This document shows, piece after piece, positions 8,101 through 64,000 of a stretch of DNA of 64,000 nt. This DNA comes from a virus. Lineage: Duplodnaviria; Caudoviricetes. The position numbers were made by a program, and so were the translations under genes. The DNA lies in IMG/VR virus record IMGVR_UViG_3300033146_001059, positions 2,190 to 66,189 of that record; one strand, written 5' to 3'. A model generated the notes under the pieces. The model saw only the letters and a list, made by a program, of their open reading frames with translations, made no database searches and was not told where the DNA came from. Positions within the stretch are counted from its first letter, which is position 1; every line of letters starts with the position of its first letter.

Positions 8101-11029
8101 TGGTGTCGTTAGTCATTGATGTTAGTCTAATAGCGGTATTACTATTATAGCCAACTATATTTATATTAAGATTGGCATTATTAAGTATTGACGCCATATT
8201 TATACCATCAACTTCAAAGTCACCACTAAAAAATACCACTTTATTAGATCTAGGTACTCTTCCCTTCTCACTAGGAAAAGCTATACCACTAGGATGTATA
8301 AGTGGTATCGCTGAAGCATACTGTGGCACATGTGCAGTTACTAAGTCATATAGATTATGTTTTAAATCAGAACTCTTTGCAAGCCCTAAACCCGGAGACT
8401 GCCCTTTATCCCATCCAATATATGTTTTCTCCTGATCTACTTCTCCAGGAGTTGTAGGATATACATTCCGAGCAATATATGTGGCTGTATTTCTTCTAAA
8501 ACCTATAAAATCATAACTTCCTACTACAGTATCTATATTACCTATAGGCAACACTGCTGTAGGGCTTATTAATCCCTGATATAGAGTATCTTTATTTCTA
8601 GTTTTTCTAACTACAAAATACCCTATTATATTAGACTTTAAGTAACCTAAATATTTATTATTTATAGAAGTTATAGGTGTCATATCTAGTACCAACTTTG
8701 TAACTTGACGCCTACCTTTTTTTAGTAGATGCTTGTCGTGAAAAGTTCTATATAAACCTCGTACGTTTTCGAACCTGTTTATCGACGGAATAGTATCAAT
8801 CTCATCTTGCCCGACTATACCGTTACTTGTACGAATATCTAAATCCTCACCAAGTATTATATCACCACTATACTGCTCACCACCTTTATAATTATCTAAT
8901 CCTCTTACTGGAAATGCGGGAGTCAGTGATCCGCCGTCAAGTATATATACAACACCTAACTCATATGTCTCACCACCCCAAAAACCGAGATTATTATAAA
9001 CATTGAACGGGTCGCCATATGATGTCTTTATACCTTCAATCACTTCATTCACTCTGATTCTCTGTGTCAGTTTATCAAGTATGTCAAATAACGTCTCGTC
9101 TATATTCGAAGAAACATTCCCAAGAACTAACCTATTATTTATCTGATCTAAAGTCTTCACTGTACTAATTGCAGAATAACTAGTGTTAATAGTTTCCTCA
9201 TTAACTACAGTTATCTCCTCTAAACCAGAATGCTGTATAGCACACGAACCGTCATCAGCTATATAATAACGTTCATTTATTTTATATGACTTAGCAACAG
9301 GTTGTGAGTCCCCACTAACATGTGTCACAGATACTTCTATACTTCCAGAAGTAACATCTAACCCACTTAACATGAACTTCACTAATTTATTAGTCTTTTT
9401 ATCACCTGAGACACCGTAGGCATCCCTATTATTACCGAAATGTATAGACACTAAACGCGATTCAGCAAGTATGTCAGACAGATTTCCATCAGCATTTTTA
9501 TGCCTGAAGTAGTACCTGTACCCACCTCCGAGTAGTACACCACCCTTTTCTACTCCGATAAAATCCAATTTAGCTACAGACGTCGACTTAATTATAAGGT
9601 CAGTTCTTTTAAAAAATTTAGCTGAGTATGTATTCGTGTCTTTAGCTTGTCGTCTATCTATTATTGTAGCAGAACCATCTGAATTCAACCTGAATCTACT
9701 ATTTATAAATCTTATAGGATTATTATTATCTGTGAATATAAAATTTACAGATCTATCATACTCTTGCTGAAGTGTGAGGTCTATGAAGTCATTTAAATTA
9801 AATTCAAATTCCTTAGTTCTAAAAGGCATGGTATGACAAGCATCAACCTCCCAAGGATTAATATAACTCGCACAATCACTACCCACAGGTGTATTCTCCT
9901 CTGTTAGGAAATTATGTATAGGAGAATATACTTTAACTAAATCTGTTCTAACATTGTTTGATGATGTAACTACTTTTCCATCAACAGCATACTCCATAGA
10001 AAAGATACTTAGTGTGTCTTTCGGGAATTCAACCATGTCATTAATGTTGCCATGATATTTATTCATGTAAAACCTTAGCATATCATAATAATCCTCCATC
10101 TTTATATTAGGAAGAAAACTTAACGAGGCCTCGGGGTCCCCTAATTTAGTATAAAATTCTTCCAACTCACTGTCACTTAATGATATAGCCACACCTGAAA
10201 CATCCTGTATTGTAGATGTTGCTACGTCAGTACTATTATTTACAAATTGAGTGTATTTCACATTGTCTCTGCTGACAAAATTAAATGCACACGGCGTTAG
10301 GTATTTTAATGATTTATTCATCCTAGGTAGTGACGTGGATGTTTCGTATGTGATATACACAGTAAACGTATGTGTTTTCATGTCAACTACATCTATACGC
10401 ATTAATGTATCCCACTCAGCATCATCAGACATAACCTGGGCATCAACTGGAACAGAGCATTCTATAGCCCCTTCGTGCATGTACACCTTTTTTGTATCGA
10501 AAGAGGAAAATATACCATTATCATTTAATTTATAACGTAAAATAACATCTCTACCTATAGATGCGTCGGTTAATGTAAATTCTATAGCACGAGTTAATGT
10601 ATATTTATTTCTATCCTCAAACGGTACTATAACTGCATTAGTACGTGTTACCACCTTCACTATGTCAACACCTAATTTTTTATTATTATTTGAGTAATCA
10701 CTCCATTTAGGGCTTGGAAATGTTCCAAGTTCACCTTCAACAAAAGTCCCATCTGTATTAAATTTCCCACTTACTATATATGCAATATTGTTATAAGACT
10801 TAGCTGCTAACGGTATAAACCCCTCTGTTAGTGCAAAACCAACGCCAGCATTCTCATTTAAAATATCACCAGGAATATTCTTTAATACATATTGATTTTC
10901 ACCTACAGTAAGAATTTCAACATTTAATGCGTCTATCATCTCTGTGTTTTTTACCACAAGAGGATGACTGTCTGTGTTTATTCCATCATTAAAACTGTTA
11001 GACCCTGATCCTTTATTATTTAACGCCAT
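5180..11029 (-). CDS. Tail stabilisation / muzzle protein, crAss-like (1949 aa)
   Basis: N-terminal NSFxxGINTD..DALN motif, C-terminal YYNE..WVSR and RVRDKYFKIKITY; position after the IHF-like and ring genes matches crAss-like synteny. Confidence 0.75.
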   Translation of the reverse strand: MALNNKGSGSNSFNDGINTDSHPLVVKNTEMIDALNVEILTVGENQYVLKNIPGDILNENAGVGFALTEGFIPLAAKSYNNIAYIVSGKFNTDGTFVEGELGTFPSPKWSDYSNNNKKLGVDIVKVVTRTNAVIVPFEDRNKYTLTRAIEFTLTDASIGRDVILRYKLNDNGIFSSFDTKKVYMHEGAIECSVPVDAQVMSDDAEWDTLMRIDVVDMKTHTFTVYITYETSTSLPRMNKSLKYLTPCAFNFVSRDNVKYTQFVNNSTDVATSTIQDVSGVAISLSDSELEEFYTKLGDPEASLSFLPNIKMEDYYDMLRFYMNKYHGNINDMVEFPKDTLSIFSMEYAVDGKVVTSSNNVRTDLVKVYSPIHNFLTEENTPVGSDCASYINPWEVDACHTMPFRTKEFEFNLNDFIDLTLQQEYDRSVNFIFTDNNNPIRFINSRFRLNSDGSATIIDRRQAKDTNTYSAKFFKRTDLIIKSTSVAKLDFIGVEKGGVLLGGGYRYYFRHKNADGNLSDILAESRLVSIHFGNNRDAYGVSGDKKTNKLVKFMLSGLDVTSGSIEVSVTHVSGDSQPVAKSYKINERYYIADDGSCAIQHSGLEEITVVNEETINTSYSAISTVKTLDQINNRLVLGNVSSNIDETLFDILDKLTQRIRVNEVIEGIKTSYGDPFNVYNNLGFWGGETYELGVVYILDGGSLTPAFPVRGLDNYKGGEQYSGDIILGEDLDIRTSNGIVGQDEIDTIPSINRFENVRGLYRTFHDKHLLKKGRRQVTKLVLDMTPITSINNKYLGYLKSNIIGYFVVRKTRNKDTLYQGLISPTAVLPIGNIDTVVGSYDFIGFRRNTATYIARNVYPTTPGEVDQEKTYIGWDKGQSPGLGLAKSSDLKHNLYDLVTAHVPQYASAIPLIHPSGIAFPSEKGRVPRSNKVVFFSGDFEVDGINMASILNNANLNINIVGYNSNTAIRLTSMTNDTSRVQYIRDITASGVESPPSLQNLEGDLKYKGKFVYVPNGVSVAAEGQFTSQIDRTYNFAYTSIVGNSGQIKYRHRDGYKDRAPDSGMIYIEYWSWGAAAMKIHVTDANKINREGILKVLRKGDIIYVPTVNREYSVDSSPVRHGNYFQFDTSPAQGIVHDWDYRHIEIHFQGKQRLKFYPVAYLPKKSIAMGYASTVTDYPVSLWDDGQTGINKASWWDNTGTANLYPYASVVNNWSKYIGVELFNPTNYNSSYKLTQHSPLTGKMKISLVNSTYTFELSYINAAGKRPGDDLKANVSVGSYVDFIIAGETSEFIVRSITIPTHGNYSFTAEATDPSASAMDITNENDLYTLNFTATSTLEFEHFWKNDILYLAEIKATQATLTSTDLAEIYSSTNSLPYFSTTDRLPFGETDTVVVADGDCFITKVFKRTTYAMGIMDAPAATFSDFNTYGSGPTQEWTHDIDENITTGWKSSSSSETMDEGRKLASNGMIVEIISQTNHNADVRSYEKSDPMEMMLYGSERGFHPAVAADKLYSEYRPDSSAYNRGLTGDYRAVSYVGISVEAPTYTLQYPNRIMISAPNIQSEFFNGYRDFSGINFKDYNSELGQIVKLINHNNNLFCIFENGVALITVDGRTLVNSQEDIYVDDAQALASKARVIDSTIGSVNPESIIRSFNTIYGVDFIRNKIWRVSGSSIEILSDYKIESYLLKAKKELVQLKSDVGIPKIYTSFDSVKKNVYFSYNKLLNDKSGGLFSTYGTVYYNEVMNRWVSRTSYTPKFQLTDNEYNLLFDVSNRKSEAWATGVNSTYCKFHGTQHTFHVEFVMHERPDMEKILTNIQILSNKIKPKTIQYSITTDVPNAVLRQNKINYYDDNGDIIDEPDYTDIDNVFNTVFEENIYIREDSSNMSIGIFKENAYYRDGKYLVQVGKVDSFSRFNNSSRRVRDKYFKIKITYSGEDYTYLYNVISLFTNNYD

Positions 11030-13850: not shown

Positions 13851-14723
13851 TTACACCACAAATGCATCAAGGATAACCTTAAGGTCAGCCGCAGAGTCAT
13901 TAGCGTAGATCACATAGTGAGTAGGTTTTGAAGCCATAGCTGCATTTACGTATGAATGATCAACATACTCATGAGATTCCCACCCTGTTCCAGTATCTTC
14001 TCCTTGGAAATCAAATGTATAAGCTTTATAAGTACCTCTTACATCTACACCCTGATCATTACCGCCGTGGTTCTGAGCATAAGGCATAACGTTTTCTTTT
14101 GTAGCCATTCTTCTTGACTCCTCAATGAATTTACCAAGACCAACACCTACAGATCCCGCTGTAATTGATGATTGTACTAGCTGAGTGAAAGGTAAACCTC
14201 CATGTGCAACTAATTTAATACTAACAGATTTAATGAATATGTGCTCCATACCTTTAGCAACCTCTAATTCAACCTCTGCCCCATTAGCATTAGTAGAAAA
14301 ATAAGTTTCAATCTCATTTAGACTTTGTACAGCTAATGTAGCCCCTAAGTCTATAGCTGCTGCTATACCAGCTTCATCAGCTGTTAATACAGGTGTTGAT
14401 TGAAATACAATAGATTTACCGTCTACTATGAAATCTCTTGCAATAGAGCTAACGTTTCTTAAAGAACGTAGTTTAATCTCCACCTCAAAAACATCACCTT
14501 TAACAAATATATGTGGTTTTCCCCAAGCATCAACAGGCATAGACGGAATTACAGCCGTCCATGAAGTTAATTCTTGTACTGCAGGCGCAGAAGCAGTTTG
14601 CACTGGATTTGATATTTGTCCGTGCTTAATTTTTCCGTACCCAGGAATGTTTATAACATTTGCGTCACCTGTGATCTCACCAAGAGAATTTAATACGACT
14701 TCTTTATATCCTAAATTGAACAT
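13851..14723 (-). CDS. Accessory (auxiliary) capsid-like protein, paralogue 3 (290 aa)
   Basis: MFNLGYK start; GxGKxxEESRRMAT and GWESHEY shared with neighbours; highly expressed codon style. Confidence 0.6.
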   Translation of the reverse strand: MFNLGYKEVVLNSLGEITGDANVINIPGYGKIKHGQISNPVQTASAPAVQELTSWTAVIPSMPVDAWGKPHIFVKGDVFEVEIKLRSLRNVSSIARDFIVDGKSIVFQSTPVLTADEAGIAAAIDLGATLAVQSLNEIETYFSTNANGAEVELEVAKGMEHIFIKSVSIKLVAHGGLPFTQLVQSSITAGSVGVGLGKFIEESRRMATKENVMPYAQNHGGNDQGVDVRGTYKAYTFDFQGEDTGTGWESHEYVDHSYVNAAMASKPTHYVIYANDSAADLKVILDAFVV

Positions 14724-35509: not shown

Positions 35510-36430
35510 TTATATTAATTGGTATGGGTTATCTCTATCGTACTCCTCGTCTTTAGAGCTGTCATACAGATCCCCATTAAATTTTCTATACTTTGCTTGT
35601 AACGTTCCAAACTTATCGACCCATATTTTCATATCATAACCGTCTACAAAGTCGTAGTCGTCTACAGTCATAACTATCAGTGTTTTCTTATATACCTTAT
35701 TACCAAGACCACCCATTAACATTTTGTACAGTTCCATTTGAATACTGTAATGATAATAGTTACAATCCATTAGATGCTTAAACGGTCCTGACATCATTTT
35801 ATACTTACGCGTACGAGAGTTATAAAAACTCTTTTTTTGTATGGGCTCCTTTAGAAATTTGTAATCAAAAATTCCGAATATAGTAGTAGGTATCCCCTTC
35901 ACTTTAACTCTTTTTTTCATTAGTAAATCTACCTGCCCGGCTAGCCTCAGCCGTGTATTATATACCAACAGTTCAGTTTTTGACAGCTTCCACTTAGCCT
36001 TTTCCATAAGGTTGAGAGCTTTCTCTGCCTGACGCGCTTGAGGCTCTTCAGGTGTTTCGCCAAAATCCCAACCGTCATAAATAGACTCACAATAAGCATG
36101 AAGTTTAGACCCACGGTCACTTGCCACACGAGCTTTTTCAGCCCACTCAGCACGGAGTTCTTCAGCTGATATTTCCAGTCCATGCTTCTCAACATAGCGC
36201 TCACTAATTCCAACTGAGTCGAAGTGCTCTTTAAACCCAGCCAAAACACCAGTCGGCGATCTAAATCTGAATTTACTACTTGCAAAATCTATTAATTTAT
36301 TGTTATTTATATCGTCTACGTGAAAGTATTTGTGATCATCTTCTATGAATACTACTTTCTTGTCTGGACTAACATTGTCCACTACAACACCCTCAACTGT
36401 AATTGAAGGTTTAAACTCCGGTACATACAT
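35510..36430 (-). CDS. PD-(D/E)XK exonuclease (306 aa)
   Basis: GSKLH..E, LAGQVDLL, IFDYK, YSIQMELY motifs. Confidence 0.8.
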   Translation of the reverse strand: MYVPEFKPSITVEGVVVDNVSPDKKVVFIEDDHKYFHVDDINNNKLIDFASSKFRFRSPTGVLAGFKEHFDSVGISERYVEKHGLEISAEELRAEWAEKARVASDRGSKLHAYCESIYDGWDFGETPEEPQARQAEKALNLMEKAKWKLSKTELLVYNTRLRLAGQVDLLMKKRVKVKGIPTTIFGIFDYKFLKEPIQKKSFYNSRTRKYKMMSGPFKHLMDCNYYHYSIQMELYKMLMGGLGNKVYKKTLIVMTVDDYDFVDGYDMKIWVDKFGTLQAKYRKFNGDLYDSSKDEEYDRDNPYQLI

Positions 36431-36439
36431 ACACTATAA

Positions 36440-36792
36440 CTATTTTAAATTCTTATACAATATACCCCCCCCCCCGTTATGAAATCCTGGGGCATACTTA
36501 CCATTCTTATTTTTAATATAATCTAGCACATCATTAAGCTGGTTATTTATTCTACCGTCTCTATAGTTAACATACTCAGCGTCTGGGCTCATATATTATA
36601 TACTACCAAACCTGTGCGTTTCTCGGTAAAAGTATCGTCTGACTGTAAGAAAACACCGCGATCCCTTAATTTACTAAGTCCACCGTAGTCTAGTATAATT
36701 TTATTTACTTTATCACCTTGAACTTTTTTCTCGTTGGAGGATAGTTTTCTAAATGACGCCCCCCACTGAAATTTTCTGCGTATTAACCTCAT
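36440..36792 (-). pseudogene. Split/decayed paralogue of 32840-33511 (ORFs 36589-36792 and 36440-36592)
   Basis: SDDTFTEKRTG..MSPDAEYVNY aligns to ADSTFTRDKTG..FSPTQKNITY; ends PGFHNGGGGILYKNLK. Confidence 0.55.
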
Positions 36793-36853
36793 TCTGTTTA
36801 TTAGACTATAGTTTATTCAAATTAGTATAAGAAAAATAAATGAGGCTTCAAAA

Positions 36854-37519
36854 TCATTTCTCTGCTATAAGCATATAAATCGGGGTTGTATCCTCTAAAG
36901 CCCCTACCTTTCTTACAAAAACGCGCTTAGCATATAAGTCCTTAAATTTCGTAAGTGTAGATTCAAATCTATTAGCTACTATTTCTATAATGTAGTTTGA
37001 GCCCACTTCCTCCATTATTGTATTATTTATAAATGTTTTTGGTCCTGCTAATATTACCCCAGCATGACATGTGTCATAACCTATACCATTGTAATACACG
37101 TAACCGAGCATATTGAGAATTTTACGTCCTAAGGTATATTGATAATAGTCTATTTTACGTAGCTGGTTCAGTACGGCTACAGCTGGTATATGTACATCTA
37201 TGTGTTCATATAGATTATGAGGAGAATAGAACGCTATGTCCTGCTTTTCTAGCGAGTCGATAAACGGCTTTATTTTACCACCGTAGCGGAACCACTCTGT
37301 GTGGCCATCGGCGTAGGCAGGGTTTGGATGTGATTTTAAGCGTTCACTATTATACTCCCCATGTAGATCCCCCTCGATATCTTTATGGAAAACATGTATT
37401 GGTACAACTTTGCCTGGTCGACATAATTGTCTGAAACGTGCACGAGGATTAATTGACTTTCCTATCTTATATAGATCTGTGTCGAGATCGTGCAATATAT
37501 ATGTATAAACTTTACTCAT
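36854..37519 (-). CDS. GIY-YIG (T5orf172/Mug113-like) domain protein
   Basis: YTYI...YKIGKS..P..R..QL...E..LH...TEWF. Confidence 0.75.
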   Translation of the reverse strand: MSKVYTYILHDLDTDLYKIGKSINPRARFRQLCRPGKVVPIHVFHKDIEGDLHGEYNSERLKSHPNPAYADGHTEWFRYGGKIKPFIDSLEKQDIAFYSPHNLYEHIDVHIPAVAVLNQLRKIDYYQYTLGRKILNMLGYVYYNGIGYDTCHAGVILAGPKTFINNTIMEEVGSNYIIEIVANRFESTLTKFKDLYAKRVFVRKVGALEDTTPIYMLIAEK

Positions 37520-47849: not shown

Positions 47850-48341
47850 ATGTATTTTAAATTGAGTATGAAAAAACTACTGGTGTTAATTATATTATTA
47901 CACACTTTAGGGAGTTGCACTAAAGTAGAGTATATAAAAGATGAACGCCCTTTAAAAGAATATGAATATGAAGAAAAAGATGTTTCAACTACATATTCTC
48001 CATATGCCTATCTAAAAGTATTAAAGGTTGAAAAAAATTATAAATATATAAAAATAAGTGTAAAATGTTCTAACCTTCTTTCTTCTTATATACATATAAG
48101 AGTATCGCAACTATACACAGAAACAGGTGAAGTTTTTTATATGTATAATAATATAATGTATTATCCTAATGTTAGACCTGGTATGACTTTTAATATTCGT
48201 CAAAGTAATAATGCATTAGATGAATTTATACTCACACTAGATTATGTATACAATTCTTTTGAAGAAATTAATATAAACATATCTCAAAAAAGGGGGATTT
48301 ATTCATATAGAACCAGTTCTGCATTAATAAATAGTATTTAA
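47850..48341 (+). CDS. Putative lipoprotein
   Basis: MKKLLVLIILLHTLGSC lipobox. Confidence 0.6.
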   Translation: MYFKLSMKKLLVLIILLHTLGSCTKVEYIKDERPLKEYEYEEKDVSTTYSPYAYLKVLKVEKNYKYIKISVKCSNLLSSYIHIRVSQLYTETGEVFYMYNNIMYYPNVRPGMTFNIRQSNNALDEFILTLDYVYNSFEEININISQKRGIYSYRTSSALINSI

Positions 48342-48354
48342 AATTTAATATATC

Positions 48355-48645
48355 GTTTGAGTTCAATTTGAACTGTATCAAACACGCGGGTTCGATTCCC
48401 GCTACCTCCACTAATAATTTAAAATCATGGGGGTAACCAGGTATCGACTTGGTACGAAGTAGAAGTAGACGAGATGTATTGAGGTGAATCCGACAATAAA
48501 CGGAAAGAAAACAGCAAAAGTAATCAACTTTGTAGATGACACTAGAGTGTTAGCTGCGGCTTAATCAGCCTATGATTGCGCGTTAGGTGAGAGCCCTAAC
48601 GTTCTTGATTTTAAAGGCTCACCCTATGTGGTGGGTCTTTTTTTA
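48355..48645 (+). ncRNA. ssrA: tmRNA, circularly permuted (two-piece) gene
   Basis: T-arm GCGGGTTCGATTCCCGC + TACCTCCA (48386-48410) precedes the 5' end GGGGGTA..ATCGAC (48429); G3.U70; helix 2 TTGGTAC/GTATCAA; tag ORF 48502-48564 ending LAAA*; outer ends approximate. Confidence 0.85.
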
Positions 48646-48676
48646 TTTTAAATTAAACCATATAAATTATATAGTT

Positions 48677-50993: not shown

Positions 50994-51000
50994 AACATAA

Positions 51001-51071
51001 TCCCTCTTAGAAATCTTACACTGTCGAGGAATTCGACGCCTGATTTTGGTTCTGGAAGAATTTTAGAGGGG
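51001..51071 (+). ncRNA. UAGAA-stem element 1 (no tRNA mimic)
   Basis: TCCCTCT-TAGAAA...AATTTT-AGAGGGG; internal GTCGA/TCGAC hairpin. Confidence 0.6.
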
Positions 51072-51089
51072 TTTATAATATTTTAACTT

Positions 51090-62223: not shown

Positions 62224-62308
62224 GTACCTCTTAGAAGCGTAAAAACTTCATCTTTAACCAGGTTGTGTGAAAATACGACTAGGATAATTTAAAAGTAATT
62301 AGAGGTAC
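62224..62308 (+). ncRNA. UAGAA-stem element 2 (no tRNA mimic)
   Basis: GTACCTCT-TAGAAG...AATT-AGAGGTAC; internal GGTTGTGT-GAAA-ATACGACT hairpin. Confidence 0.65.
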
Positions 62309-62335
62309 AATATGGCCGTTTAATTGCGGCCACCA

Positions 62336-62410
62336 GGCGCTGTCGTCTAATTGGCCTAGGACACCACCCTTTCACGGTGGCAGATGCGAGTTCGAACCTC
62401 GTCGGCGTCA
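62336..62410 (+). tRNA. tRNA-Glu(TTC)
   Basis: Full cloverleaf; CCACC-CTTTCAC-GGTGG; TTCGAAC; no encoded CCA. Confidence 0.9.
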
Positions 62411-62525
62411 CTTTTCTTATTAAAACTTGTTGGTTCGAATTTTATATCGTATATTGCGGTATGAGGGAAGACATACAAAGAAATAAGTGAGATTACTGGA
62501 GCAGCTAAAAGTAAATTTAGTCTCA

Positions 62526-62612
62526 AATCTAGTCTATTTATGTAGAAATCATCATTGGTTATTTGACCATAATAGGTTAGATAAAGAAAGTATAAAAAAC
62601 ATTAAAAATAAA
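62526..62612 (+). pseudogene. HNH endonuclease C-terminal remnant
   Basis: NLVYLCRNHHWLFDH with no intact start. Confidence 0.55.
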
Positions 62613-62731
62613 AGCATCACTTAGAAACATTTACATTCGTAAATTTAGCTCAGTTGGTAGAGCATTTGAATCATAATCAAAAGGCCAAGGGTTCAACTCC
62701 CTTATCTTACAACAGAAAATTAGTGATGCTT
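62612..62731 (+). ncRNA. UAGAA-stem element 3 enclosing a degenerate tRNA(CAT) at 62639-62711
   Basis: AAGCATCACT-TAGAAA...AATT-AGTGATGCTT; inner D, anticodon and T arms intact, acceptor stem has 2 mismatches. Confidence 0.7.
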
Positions 62732-62739
62732 AAACTTAT

Positions 62740-62813
62740 TGTGAGATAGAGCAGATGGCCAGCTCGCGAGGCTCATAACCTCGAGGTCGGGGGTTCGAAT
62801 CCCCCTCTCGCTA
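62740..62813 (+). tRNA. tRNA-Met(CAT), initiator type
   Basis: 1:72 mismatch, A11:U24, CGAGG-CTCATAA-CCTCG. Confidence 0.85.
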
Positions 62814-62889
62814 CTATCAGGTCCCTTTGAAGCTAGGGTTTATGGAACAGGCTAAATAAAAGCCTATAATACCTGTTCGCCTGTAACCT

Positions 62890-62962
62890 TGTGATATAGC
62901 TCAGTTGGTAGAGCATCTCCTTCATGCGGAAAAAGTCATCGGTTCGAGTCCGATTATCGCTA
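62890..62962 (+). tRNA. tRNA-Met(CAT), elongator-like (Ile2 not excluded)
   Basis: Cloverleaf, loop TTCATGC; one anticodon-stem mismatch and a U1:U72 mismatch. Confidence 0.7.
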
Positions 62963-62970
62963 CTAAAACA

Positions 62971-63175
62971 AGACCAGATGGCTGGAGAAATACTATTACG
63001 AAAGGTATTTGAGATAAAGATTGATTTTTGCGGATTGATCGCAGGCTCATTACGCTTACTAATTACTACAGTATGGTAAAGCACATGGAGCCGCAACTCC
63101 ACGGTCATAGATAAACGAGAATTAACGTTGTTCAAATTTATTTATGTTGGGTGGTTCGAATCCCCCTCAGGTCAC
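62971..63175 (+). ncRNA. Expanded tRNA-like RNA (Cys-like fragments)
   Basis: GACCAGA/TCAGGTC ends, TGGAG-CCGCAA-CTCCA arm, TTCGAATCC T-arm, separated by long inserts. Confidence 0.4.
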
Positions 63176-63186
63176 AATTATTAAAT

Positions 63187-63296
63187 GGGAACTTTTATAA
63201 GTTAGAGATATTATGTGTCTCTTAGAAAAATTTAAAAACTATGGTTAAGACTATTCCGTGAGGAAAGGTTGTCAGGTTCAAATCCTGAAGTTCCCG
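63187..63296 (+). ncRNA. UAGAA-stem element 4: tRNA-like RNA with the module inserted as a hairpin
   Basis: GGGAACT/AGTTCCC acceptor; TT-AGAGATAT-tat-GTGTCTCT-TAGAAAA insert; TCAGG-TTCAAAT-CCTGA T-arm. Confidence 0.65.
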
Positions 63297-63300
63297 CAAA

Positions 63301-63419
63301 AAATCCCCCTTAGAAAACTTTCAATCAGATTTTGTAAATCCGAGATTGTAGGTTCGAATCCTATGTTATCGTTAGATAATTAGCTAAACTGGATATAGCG
63401 CGTAATTTTAGGGGGATTT
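63301..63419 (+). ncRNA. UAGAA-stem element 5 enclosing a circularly permuted tRNA-Thr(TGT) mimic
   Basis: AAATCCCCCT-TAGAAAA...AATTTT-AGGGGGATTT; order anticodon arm, T-arm, closed acceptor, D-arm. Confidence 0.75.
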
Positions 63420-63428
63420 AAATTATTG

Positions 63429-63634
63429 AATAGTAAATGGCGGAATAGGTAGACGCTAACAGAGGTATAGGATCACTCCAATTATAAGGGCCCCTCTATA
63501 ATTATAATAAATTATGATCTATGTAAAGTGACTATACTAGTGACAAAAGCCCTTAGTGGATGAGCCTACGGGCAATAATGACAACATGACGAGTAATTCA
63601 AGCTCGAATCTAGTCAAATCTTTACTTTACTATT
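63429..63634 (+). ncRNA. Expanded tRNA-Leu-like RNA
   Basis: AATAGTAAA/TTTACTATT ends, Leu-type D-arm GCGGAATAGGTAGACGC, T-stem GTAAAG/CTTTAC with a large structured insert. Confidence 0.5.
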
Positions 63635-63644
63635 TAAATTATTT

Positions 63645-63717
63645 GGGGCTGAAGCTCTACTGGCTGAGCACTTCGCTTGCACCGAAGAGGTTGCGGGATC
63701 GTACCCCGTCAGCTCCA
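63645..63717 (+). tRNA. tRNA-Ala(TGC)
   Basis: GGGGCTG/CAGCTCC with G3.U70; CTTCG-CTTGCAC-CGAAG; atypical T-loop ATCGTAC. Confidence 0.85.
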
Positions 63718-63721
63718 CAAA

Positions 63722-63846
63722 TACCTCTCTTAGAAAAATTCAAAAACATGTAAAGACAGATAAAAGCCCTTGTGGCACATAAGTCCGTTAGGTTCGAATC
63801 CTTCACCCTTGGTGTAAATTGGTTTTTGAGGACAAATAGAGAGGTA
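63722..63846 (+). ncRNA. UAGAA-stem element 6 enclosing a permuted tRNA mimic
   Basis: TACCTCTCT-TAGAAAA...AAT-AGAGAGGTA; TCAAAAAC/GTTTTTGA; T-arm AGG-TTCGAAT-CCT then closed acceptor CACC-ctt-GGTG. Confidence 0.7.
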
Positions 63847-63851
63847 AATTT

Positions 63852-63973
63852 GGCGAGATTAAAATGTTGGAACACTAGTGAGGTTTTCATTTCGTCTCAC
63901 TTAGAAAACTTTAAATTTATACAAAACAAAATGTGAATTTGAATAACGGAGGTTCGAATCCTTCCTCTCGCCA
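63852..63973 (+). ncRNA. UAGAA-stem element 7: tRNA-like RNA with the module inserted as a hairpin
   Basis: GGCGAGA/TCTCGCC-A acceptor; CT-AGTGAGG...TCTCACT-TAGAAAA insert; GGAGG-TTCGAAT-CCTTC T-arm. Confidence 0.7.
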
Positions 63974-64000
63974 CTAAAGCCTCCCTCGATTTCATGACTG

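Follow-up and report, generated by a model that had tools for sequence, protein, structure and literature searches.

Ro60 proteins and Y RNAs form an old RNA-surveillance system that is incompletely understood and for which, to our knowledge, only a few YrlA-type cases and one structure have been described in phages. In this study, we analyzed seven elements in a 64,000-nucleotide (nt) stretch (hereafter, the window) of the virus record IMGVR_UViG_3300033146_001059, which is a 66,189-base contig; the window is this contig minus its first 2189 bases, and window position 64000 is the contig end. With a probability of about 0.65, the seven elements are small non-coding RNA genes of one modular family, namely Y-RNA-like molecules that partner a divergent phage Ro60. 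According to Chen et al. (2014, PMC4201824), YrlA RNAs carry the motif GNCGAAN0-1G near the 5′ end, and their genes lie less than 4 kb from the Ro60 gene on the same strand. For Thermus phage phiLo, it was reported that Ro60 binds two upstream Y-like RNAs (Yrl1 and Yrl2) and forms complexes with host PNPase (PMC12135203). TROVE proteins have been recorded in crAss001 (PMC8375218) and in some jumbo phages (PMC7824862), and Gp96 of crAss001 was described as an early protein with a TROVE domain that may be part of a ribonucleoprotein (PMC8375218, PMC10136315).

All seven elements proposed in a preliminary description of this DNA were present, each on the plus strand. In every one of them (7/7), the helix strand before an invariant UAGAA ends with CU, and the partner strand begins with AG and is preceded by U; the helix with this fixed end is called the module, or the handle when considered apart from its cargo. 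The stems are 5-10 base pairs (bp) long, differ in sequence, and end in C-G and U-A pairs. The preliminary description had given these fixed positions in the same way, and its further wording that the partner is usually preceded by AATT stood only in part: the T was found in all seven, whereas the exact AATT occurred in two (the others being TTTT in two, AAAT, AGTT, and CACT). The minimum-free-energy fold held the module stem in each of the seven elements.

In five elements, the terminal stem is formed by both ends (8-10 bp, with one G-U pair in total). Two of them are simple modules: 50999..51073 has a 9-bp stem (50999-51007/51065-51073, including the G-U pair) with UAGAA at 51008-51012, and 62224..62308 has an 8-bp stem (62224-62231/62301-62308) with UAGAA at 62232-62236. 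The cargo of the former consists of a hairpin and GATTTTGGTTCT, a motif in common with a module at 14313-14426 of another phage contig, G001, and an open reading frame (ORF 51090) starts 17 nt downstream of this element. The nested-tRNA module 62612..62731 (10-bp stem, 62612-62621/62722-62731; UAGAA, 62622-62626) encloses a tRNA(CAT) at 62639-62711, which scored 65.7 bits with Rfam RF00005, above the gathering threshold, and whose acceptor stem has two mismatches by reading of the sequence. The permuted tRNA-like element 63301..63419, which shows the YrlA topology, has a 10-bp terminal stem (63301-63310/63410-63419) and UAGAA at 63311-63315, after which come an additional hairpin, the T arm, a tetraloop-closed acceptor, and the D arm. 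The other permuted element, 63722..63846 (9-bp stem, 63722-63730/63838-63846; UAGAA, 63731-63735), is degenerate: its T arm is weak, its closed acceptor is short, and it contains a second inner helix. The remaining two elements, 63187..63298 and 63852..63973, are non-permuted RNAs of 112-122 nt with an acceptor and a T arm that carry the module helix as an internal hairpin (63204-63222 and 63877-63901, followed by UAGAA at 63223-63227 and 63902-63906, respectively). The order in 63187..63298 is acceptor 5′ strand, linker, module hairpin, UAGAA, a spacer with a small GNRA-capped hairpin, T arm, and acceptor 3′ strand. With RF00005, 63852-63973 scored 15.9 against a gathering threshold of 29, and none of the other elements apart from the nested tRNA gave a match. 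These cargo classes (two simple, one nested tRNA, two permuted in the order T arm, closed acceptor, and D arm, and two with the internal hairpin) are those that had been distinguished previously. From 62224 to the contig end no credible ORFs were found; the region is instead a dense RNA-gene cluster, with five tRNAs in 62224-64000 according to ARAGORN and Rfam.

Like YrlA and phage Y RNAs, the present RNAs are small, and in the relatives described below several of them often accompany one Ro60-type gene, on whose strand they are encoded. An end-formed stem followed by a short conserved unpaired motif is also common to both, being a 6-bp stem and AAUGCU in the YrlA consensus and 8-10 bp and UAGAA here, and the YrlA order of T arm, closed acceptor, and D arm within the end stem is found fully in 63301-63419 and partly in 63722-63846. 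In contrast, the two simple, one nested, and two hairpin-type members in the window do not have this tRNA-like topology. The motif here is UAGAA or UACAA instead of GNCGAAN0-1G or CGAA; the handle is also found inside non-permuted tRNA-like RNAs, where it forms a hairpin, as well as enclosing complete tRNAs or bearing cargo unlike tRNA; a locus can have up to approximately 10 modules; and the partner protein is missed by Pfam TROVE. The YrlA model RF02553 gave a sole match in the window at 62753-62944 (24.8 bits against a gathering threshold of 69), an artefact that combines the T arm of a tRNA with the D arm of the tRNA that follows, and no match in 13 related loci or in the crAss001 gap described below. 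As judged from sequence, the family appears to work like YrlA-type Y RNAs and yet lies outside YrlA by model and motif, and outside Rfam. New here are the handle and its three topologies, among them the non-permuted form and whole tRNA-like units, together with the switch of the handle between clades of a highly divergent Ro60 family and its occurrence in more than one phage lineage.

The 7-mer CTTAGAA alone was not enriched in the window (15 matches versus 15.03 expected), and the stem was present at 7 of the 11 plus-strand CTTAGAA sites. On the forward strands of the window and G001, 13 TAGAA sites had a perfect partner of at least 8 bp 25-140 nt downstream, compared with a mean of 1.26 and a maximum of 5 in 200 dinucleotide shuffles, and TAGAA ranked first among the 1024 pentamers in this test. 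When nine modules were aligned, 81 of 81 cells were paired, six of the nine pairs were changed on both sides, and 20 double-change cells were observed against 5.8 ± 1.9 in shuffles. None of 500 shuffles matched the observed covariation score, paired-cell percentage, or number of double-change cells; the counts of pairs and of pair types were less distinctive, being matched by 50 and 45 of the 500, respectively, and 27-51% of cells were paired in slid-register controls. The stems covary, and the earlier statement that their sequences differ while pairing is kept is borne out. A covariance model (R1) trained on six simple modules recovered the nine modules aligned above, six of which were its own training rows. 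Because R1 missed the remaining long-cargo modules, the later counts were made with our own pairing script and depend on its rules: the pentamer had to be preceded by CT and the partner by T, and at least 7 bp (outer stem) or at least 5 bp (hairpin), with G-U excluded, were required.

The contigs of run X1 include a relative of approximately 92% identity spanning window positions 63174-63648. In its counterpart of 63301, neither the stem nor UAGAA differs, whereas 23 substitutions are found in the cargo, including three double-compensatory pairs in the inner hairpin. Furthermore, owing to a 9-nt insertion, this relative has in place of the sealed acceptor one of 7 bp that is followed by GCCA, a 7-nt spacer, and a 5′ acceptor strand.

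The same module with different stems was also found in other phage contigs: G001 (at least 10 copies), G002 (three copies), and the loci L266, L268, L270, and L272. G001 (43 kb), which was found by a pattern joining the motif to the T loop, contains at least 10 modules within 1.6 kb upstream of one gene, and they take the same three topologies, namely simple, nested around a tRNA-Ile(GAT), and permuted with a complete anticodon arm; the permuted tRNA, at 8866-8995, has an intact UGA anticodon arm and is broken in the variable region. Two non-permuted forms are also present in G001, one of which has UAGCA. The modules of G002 (109 kb) are a nested tRNA-Gly, a simple module, and a non-permuted form. 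At a further locus, L285, nested tRNAs, non-permuted forms, and a permuted form directly follow the stop codon of a Ro60-like gene. The window contig is a crAss-like phage, with a Crassvirus muzzle protein and tail ring protein 2 (Pfam) and with portal, terminase, and major head proteins found in the window (PHROGs), whereas Gp23 and a T4 portal mark G002 as T4-like; the RNA family is therefore not confined to one phage lineage. The window and G001 have no protein in common at an E-value of 1e-3.

G001 and G002 have two proteins in common, which flank the RNA cluster. The larger of them consists of 629 amino acids in G001 and 651 in G002, and its gene starts 40 nt and approximately 17 nt, respectively, after a simple module. 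A scan of viral contigs with an alignment of this protein yielded 52 loci. Eight of these, including the two discovery contigs G001 and G002, form a close clade (clade A; at least 44% identity to the G001 protein), and 44 form a distant clade (clade B; 22-26% identity), mostly on contigs of approximately 100 kb, many of them crAss-sized. In the close clade, CU|UAGAA modules occurred on the strand of the gene in seven of the eight loci and never on the other strand; 22 of the 24 modules lay within 2 kb upstream of the Ro60-like gene, all on the same strand. With outer stems only, modules were found in 6/8 close loci and in 4/6 new loci. In the distant clade, modules of the same architecture with CU|UACAA were found in 38 of the 44 loci (n = 127, a raw number inflated by kinship among these loci); 96 of them lay downstream and 10 upstream at no more than 2 kb from the gene, 21 were farther away, and one was on the opposite strand. 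UAGAA modules occurred in only one of the 44 distant loci, and UACAA modules in none of the eight close loci. Four control pentamers gave at most three modules each, whereas UAUAA gave 20 and looks like a handle variant. Such a switch of the handle pentamer with the protein clade is what direct recognition predicts.

In four genomes of 96-100% completeness, same-strand ACTTACAA sites clustered at the gene (8/12, 7/7, 8/10, and 10/16, with the site coordinates mapped by us onto the gene positions from the locus scan), and in each of the four, one such site preceded the gene start by approximately 70-80 nt. Rfam detected only tRNAs and one transfer-messenger RNA (tmRNA) in 13 of the loci.

The neighbor proteins of 600-650 amino acids have more than 100 homologue clusters, none of which is named. 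Pfam gave only weak vWA matches, and PHROG analysis assigned the protein to phrog_850, 'RNA-binding protein' (E = 2.8e-17 for G001 and 3.7e-18 for G002). The same PHROG contains crAss001 Gp96 (E = 9.3e-33), which is recognized by Pfam TROVE (5.5e-13) and by vWA_Ro60. In an alignment of 32 sequences, the D-x-S-x-S of the metal-ion-dependent adhesion site (MIDAS) was invariant (D394, S396, and S398). An AlphaFold model (predicted local distance difference test, 82.4) placed a helical-repeat ring before a vWA domain with the MIDAS motif, and the top ten Foldseek matches in the PDB were all Ro60/Rsr/TROVE structures, including Ro60 of Thermus phage phiLo (E = 1.3e-5 to 7.2e-4 over approximately 470-690 alignment columns). 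VIA-align ranked the same ten first (Z = 13.7-15.3, with 357-409 residues aligned across model residues 4-628), and entries with only a vWA domain reached Z values of at most 12.9. Compared with Ro60, Rsr, and TROVE proteins (PDB 1YVP, 2NVO, and 9L5Y; crAss001 Gp96), the predicted helical ring, the C-terminal vWA domain with its MIDAS motif, and the PHROG family are alike; the length of 600-650 amino acids, extra beta segments (model residues ~111-216), an identity of approximately 10-12% to the solved Ro60s, and the absence of a Pfam TROVE match set the neighbor protein apart. From the sequence and structure comparisons, we conclude that it is a very divergent Ro60-like protein, with the remaining doubt lying in the helical half of the match.

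Several observations weigh against assigning the RNAs to a Ro60 partner. The fold match has a template modeling score of only 0.26-0.52; the VIA-align Z of approximately 15 is only about 2 above the vWA-only matches, and helical repeats can reach approximately 13 by chance according to the warning of the aligner. Pfam TROVE (PF05731) matched none of the 32 family members at E ≤ 0.01 and vWA_Ro60 matched one weakly, PDB sequence and profile searches gave no Ro60 match for the neighbor protein, and hhalign against crAss001 Gp96 was weak (55% probability over 57 columns). On the RNA side, the GNCGAAN0-1G motif is absent and all seven window elements read CU-UAGAA at that position, in agreement with the earlier remark that the core differs from the canonical one; furthermore, window module 51001, G001 module 14321, and the G002 type at approximately 5.9 kb lie farther from the cluster or the gene. 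The 52 loci were chosen by the gene and cover 5-kb flanks only, and the Ro60-like gene lay within tRNA arrays in all 13 scanned loci, so that part of the co-location could reflect a shared RNA-gene region and shared ancestry. A Pfam scan of the window proteins and a homologue search of the contig found no Ro60-like gene in either, just as no TROVE gene had been visible in the preliminary description, and for this phage the link to Ro60 is through RNA homology only. Because the contig terminates within the RNA cluster and is 37% complete (CheckV), the missing gene is uninformative. The preliminary description had suggested that the module is a handle for a divergent Ro60 on tRNA mimics. The Ro60-like gene next to the modules of the relatives, its fold match, the PHROG shared with Gp96, and the pentamer change between clades support this suggestion.

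In the Ro60-partner reading, the handle would comprise a helix of arbitrary sequence with a fixed proximal end, formed by the C-G and U-A pairs, the U 5′ of one strand, and UAGAA after the other. This end is the putative docking site for a divergent phage Ro60 (a TROVE ring plus a vWA domain), the gene of which would most likely lie just past the contig end in this phage. The RNAs would be expressed and processed from a co-transcribed array, in which the differing helix sequences would let each 5′ strand pair with its own 3′ strand. From the handle hangs a variable cargo of tRNA-shaped domains (normal or circularly permuted), whole tRNA-like units, or short hairpins. On the model of Ro60/Y RNA/PNPase particles, host tRNA-binding factors or nucleases would be the putative downstream effectors toward which this cargo tethers or gates the ring. 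A module just upstream of the gene could act as an autoregulatory site.

A more far-reaching proposal, which we regard as tentative and somewhat less probable than not, is that several lineages of large phages (gut crAss-sized, the crAss-like phage of the window, and T4-like) carry a programmable Ro60 system, in which an array, a co-evolving handle, and an aiming or decoy function are combined. One ring protein would be served by up to approximately 10 adaptor RNAs through a clade-specific docking helix that co-evolves with it (UAGAA, UACAA, and possibly UACUUCAA in crAss001). The cargo would differ from RNA to RNA and would include tRNA bodies, some anticodon-bearing or suppressor-like, whose order is normal, nested, or circularly permuted. 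Through the array, the ring and a recruited host exonuclease would be directed to various RNA or protein targets; alternatively, the array would shield from or decoy tRNA-directed host defenses, and the copy just upstream of the gene may feed back on the expression of the gene itself.

The array could also be read as a polycistronic RNA precursor in which the stems are leader-trailer clamps, that is, signals for processing or stability (an exonuclease stop or an endonuclease site reading U...UAGAA) that would set the termini of small RNAs and of some mRNAs without involving the Ro60-like protein. Such clamps would fit the spacing of only 2-5 nt between modules and neighboring RNAs, the enclosure of whole tRNAs by some modules, the position of others 17-40 nt upstream of protein genes (window 51090; G001 10274 and 14460; the G002 homologue), and the unique stems, which suit correct self-pairing in an array. 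However, enclosed tRNAs are rare: tRNAs called by ARAGORN lay inside modules in 1/5 cases in the window, 2/106 in the close clade, and 31/174 in the distant clade. As only a minority of tRNAs is enclosed, the module is not a general pre-tRNA signal. Moreover, the stem is an internal hairpin rather than an end clamp in the non-permuted form, and the junction pentamer tracks the Ro60-like clade, which a host nuclease does not predict. We consider this explanation unlikely.

Less probable still is that the permuted members are true permuted tRNA genes that mature, like a two-piece tmRNA, to two-piece tRNA-like molecules ending in CCA, with the handle being a joint instead of a protein site. In the permuted tRNA genes of Cyanidioschyzon and in two-piece tmRNA, the 3′ half likewise precedes the 5′ half and a leader-trailer helix joins the ends, and one module relative, the X1 counterpart of 63301 described above, encodes CCA and a spacer in the acceptor loop. 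The permuted tRNA at G001 8866-8995, with a complete anticodon arm (UGA) and interrupted in the variable region, a UCA-anticodon permuted form in L285, and the permuted tmRNA encoded in the window itself are also in line with such maturation. Nevertheless, the acceptors of window elements 63301 and 63722 are sealed by loops of 3-4 nt and have no CCA, the simple and hairpin-type modules contain no tRNA to assemble, and the linkage to the Ro60-like gene would be left unexplained. In addition, unlike in the algal genes, no bulge-helix-bulge is present, the host is bacterial, and most members are not tRNAs. Two-piece maturation may apply to some members alongside a putative Ro60-binding function of the family.

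A purely DNA-level motif (a promoter or terminator, a hairpin promoter of a virion RNA polymerase, or a structure-specific recombination site) or a retron-like template RNA is very improbable, since, notwithstanding the AT-rich conserved junction, one weak sigma-70-like match ending at 62225, and the fact that retron RNAs too have end-pairing repeats beside a conserved G, the modules are strictly one-stranded, their partner strands covary at distances of 35-107 nt (which a promoter does not need), promoter-like sites numbered 9 versus 6.7 expected with no terminator-like site at any module, and Pfam scans of 58 window proteins and 33 G001 proteins found no reverse transcriptase or integrase. 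The possibility of mere promoter or terminator sites, which had been named earlier as what would overturn the RNA interpretation, is thus not supported.

Three structural ideas were also dropped. By reading, removal of the hairpin as an intron or by bulge-helix-bulge splicing yields no cloverleaf, and no K-turn, loop E, or self-cleaving ribozyme core was recognized by reading or by Rfam. Pairing of UAGAA with the T loop was set aside, as the simple modules have no T loop.

The present results bring a divergent Ro60 family together with its probable RNAs; the protein is invisible to Pfam TROVE and the RNAs are invisible to the Rfam YrlA model, and the family reaches genomes of gut crAss-like size and type. 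The RNAs show a clear modular design of a fixed handle and exchangeable tRNA-like cargo in three topologies, and the clade-dependent handle motif offers a direct specificity-swap test. In our literature searches, no description of RNAs of this kind in crAss-like phages was found. Downstream of Gp96 in crAss001 is an unannotated 905-nt gap at 95965-96869 (L317 3966-4870, minus strand). Within it are a 144-nt RNA that resembles a tRNA carrying a large insertion (Rfam tRNA, 46.6 bits) and a short stem followed by TACTTCAA in four copies; these copies were read by eye only and may represent a third handle variant. As crAss001 is cultured and this gap beside its TROVE gene holds tRNA-like RNAs, the idea can be tested at the bench.

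Further searches for relatives gave the following results. The neighbor-protein searches with the window found no locus with a module cluster, and the G001 protein used as a lone query matched only itself. Among the matches listed for the CTTAGAAAANTTTAAA pattern in viral contigs, only noise was seen. The pattern CTTAGAA...GATTTTGGTTCT gave 48 matches, of which only G001 itself was real and the bulk came from one conserved coding stretch of jumbo phages. A three-part pattern gave 22 matches in metagenome contigs, which by reading were mostly ordinary tRNAs, the middle motif being a D-loop; no new family member was among them. No clear CT|TAGAA module was found in the first 12 kb of Cellulophaga phage phi14:2, for which highly expressed non-coding regions have been reported (bioRxiv 10.1101/2020.03.07.982082).

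The relatives contain other features of note. Within the module array of G001 (L184 8779-8861), ARAGORN called a tRNA with an extended anticodon stem and a four-base anticodon (taga). At G001 36254-37486 (L185 16254-17486), a protein resembling adenylosuccinate synthetase is encoded (Pfam E = 7.6e-46); phage PurZ enzymes of this family make 2-aminoadenine genomes. In G002, the large subunit of ribonucleotide reductase (L260 4159-7635) is split by an intein (Pfam Intein_splicing, E = 8e-18), and a HAD domain of the 'Swiss Army Knife' RNA-repair type is encoded at L263 11698-12168. Between two G002 modules, a region of approximately 270 nt (L264 3200-3500, minus strand) has a T arm, an acceptor strand, and an encoded CCA at its end and is tmRNA-like, yet ARAGORN made no call. 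The permuted tRNA-like module of L285 (7470-7585) has an intact anticodon arm with the opal-suppressor anticodon UCA and belongs to a complete genome of approximately 101 kb.

Finally, additional RNA-like features were observed in the window. A permuted tmRNA gene of the two-piece type lies at 48320-48655 (Rfam tmRNA_permuted, 66.3 bits), with an ARAGORN tag peptide ending in LAAA. Between the simple module 62224..62308 and a tRNA-Glu, a 7-bp hairpin directly followed by CCA (62312-62335) ends exactly at the 5′ end of the tRNA (62336) and resembles an acceptor mini-helix with an encoded CCA. The segment 63430-63640 starts like the 5′ half of a class II tRNA, with an acceptor strand and a D arm, and has no recognizable 3′ half. 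The segment 62813-63173 (approximately 360 nt) comprises a tRNA at 62890-62963 and an RNA-like region of approximately 210 nt ending in a T arm and an acceptor-like strand; it is skipped by the contig of the approximately 92% identical relative of run X1, which indicates an indel between close relatives.

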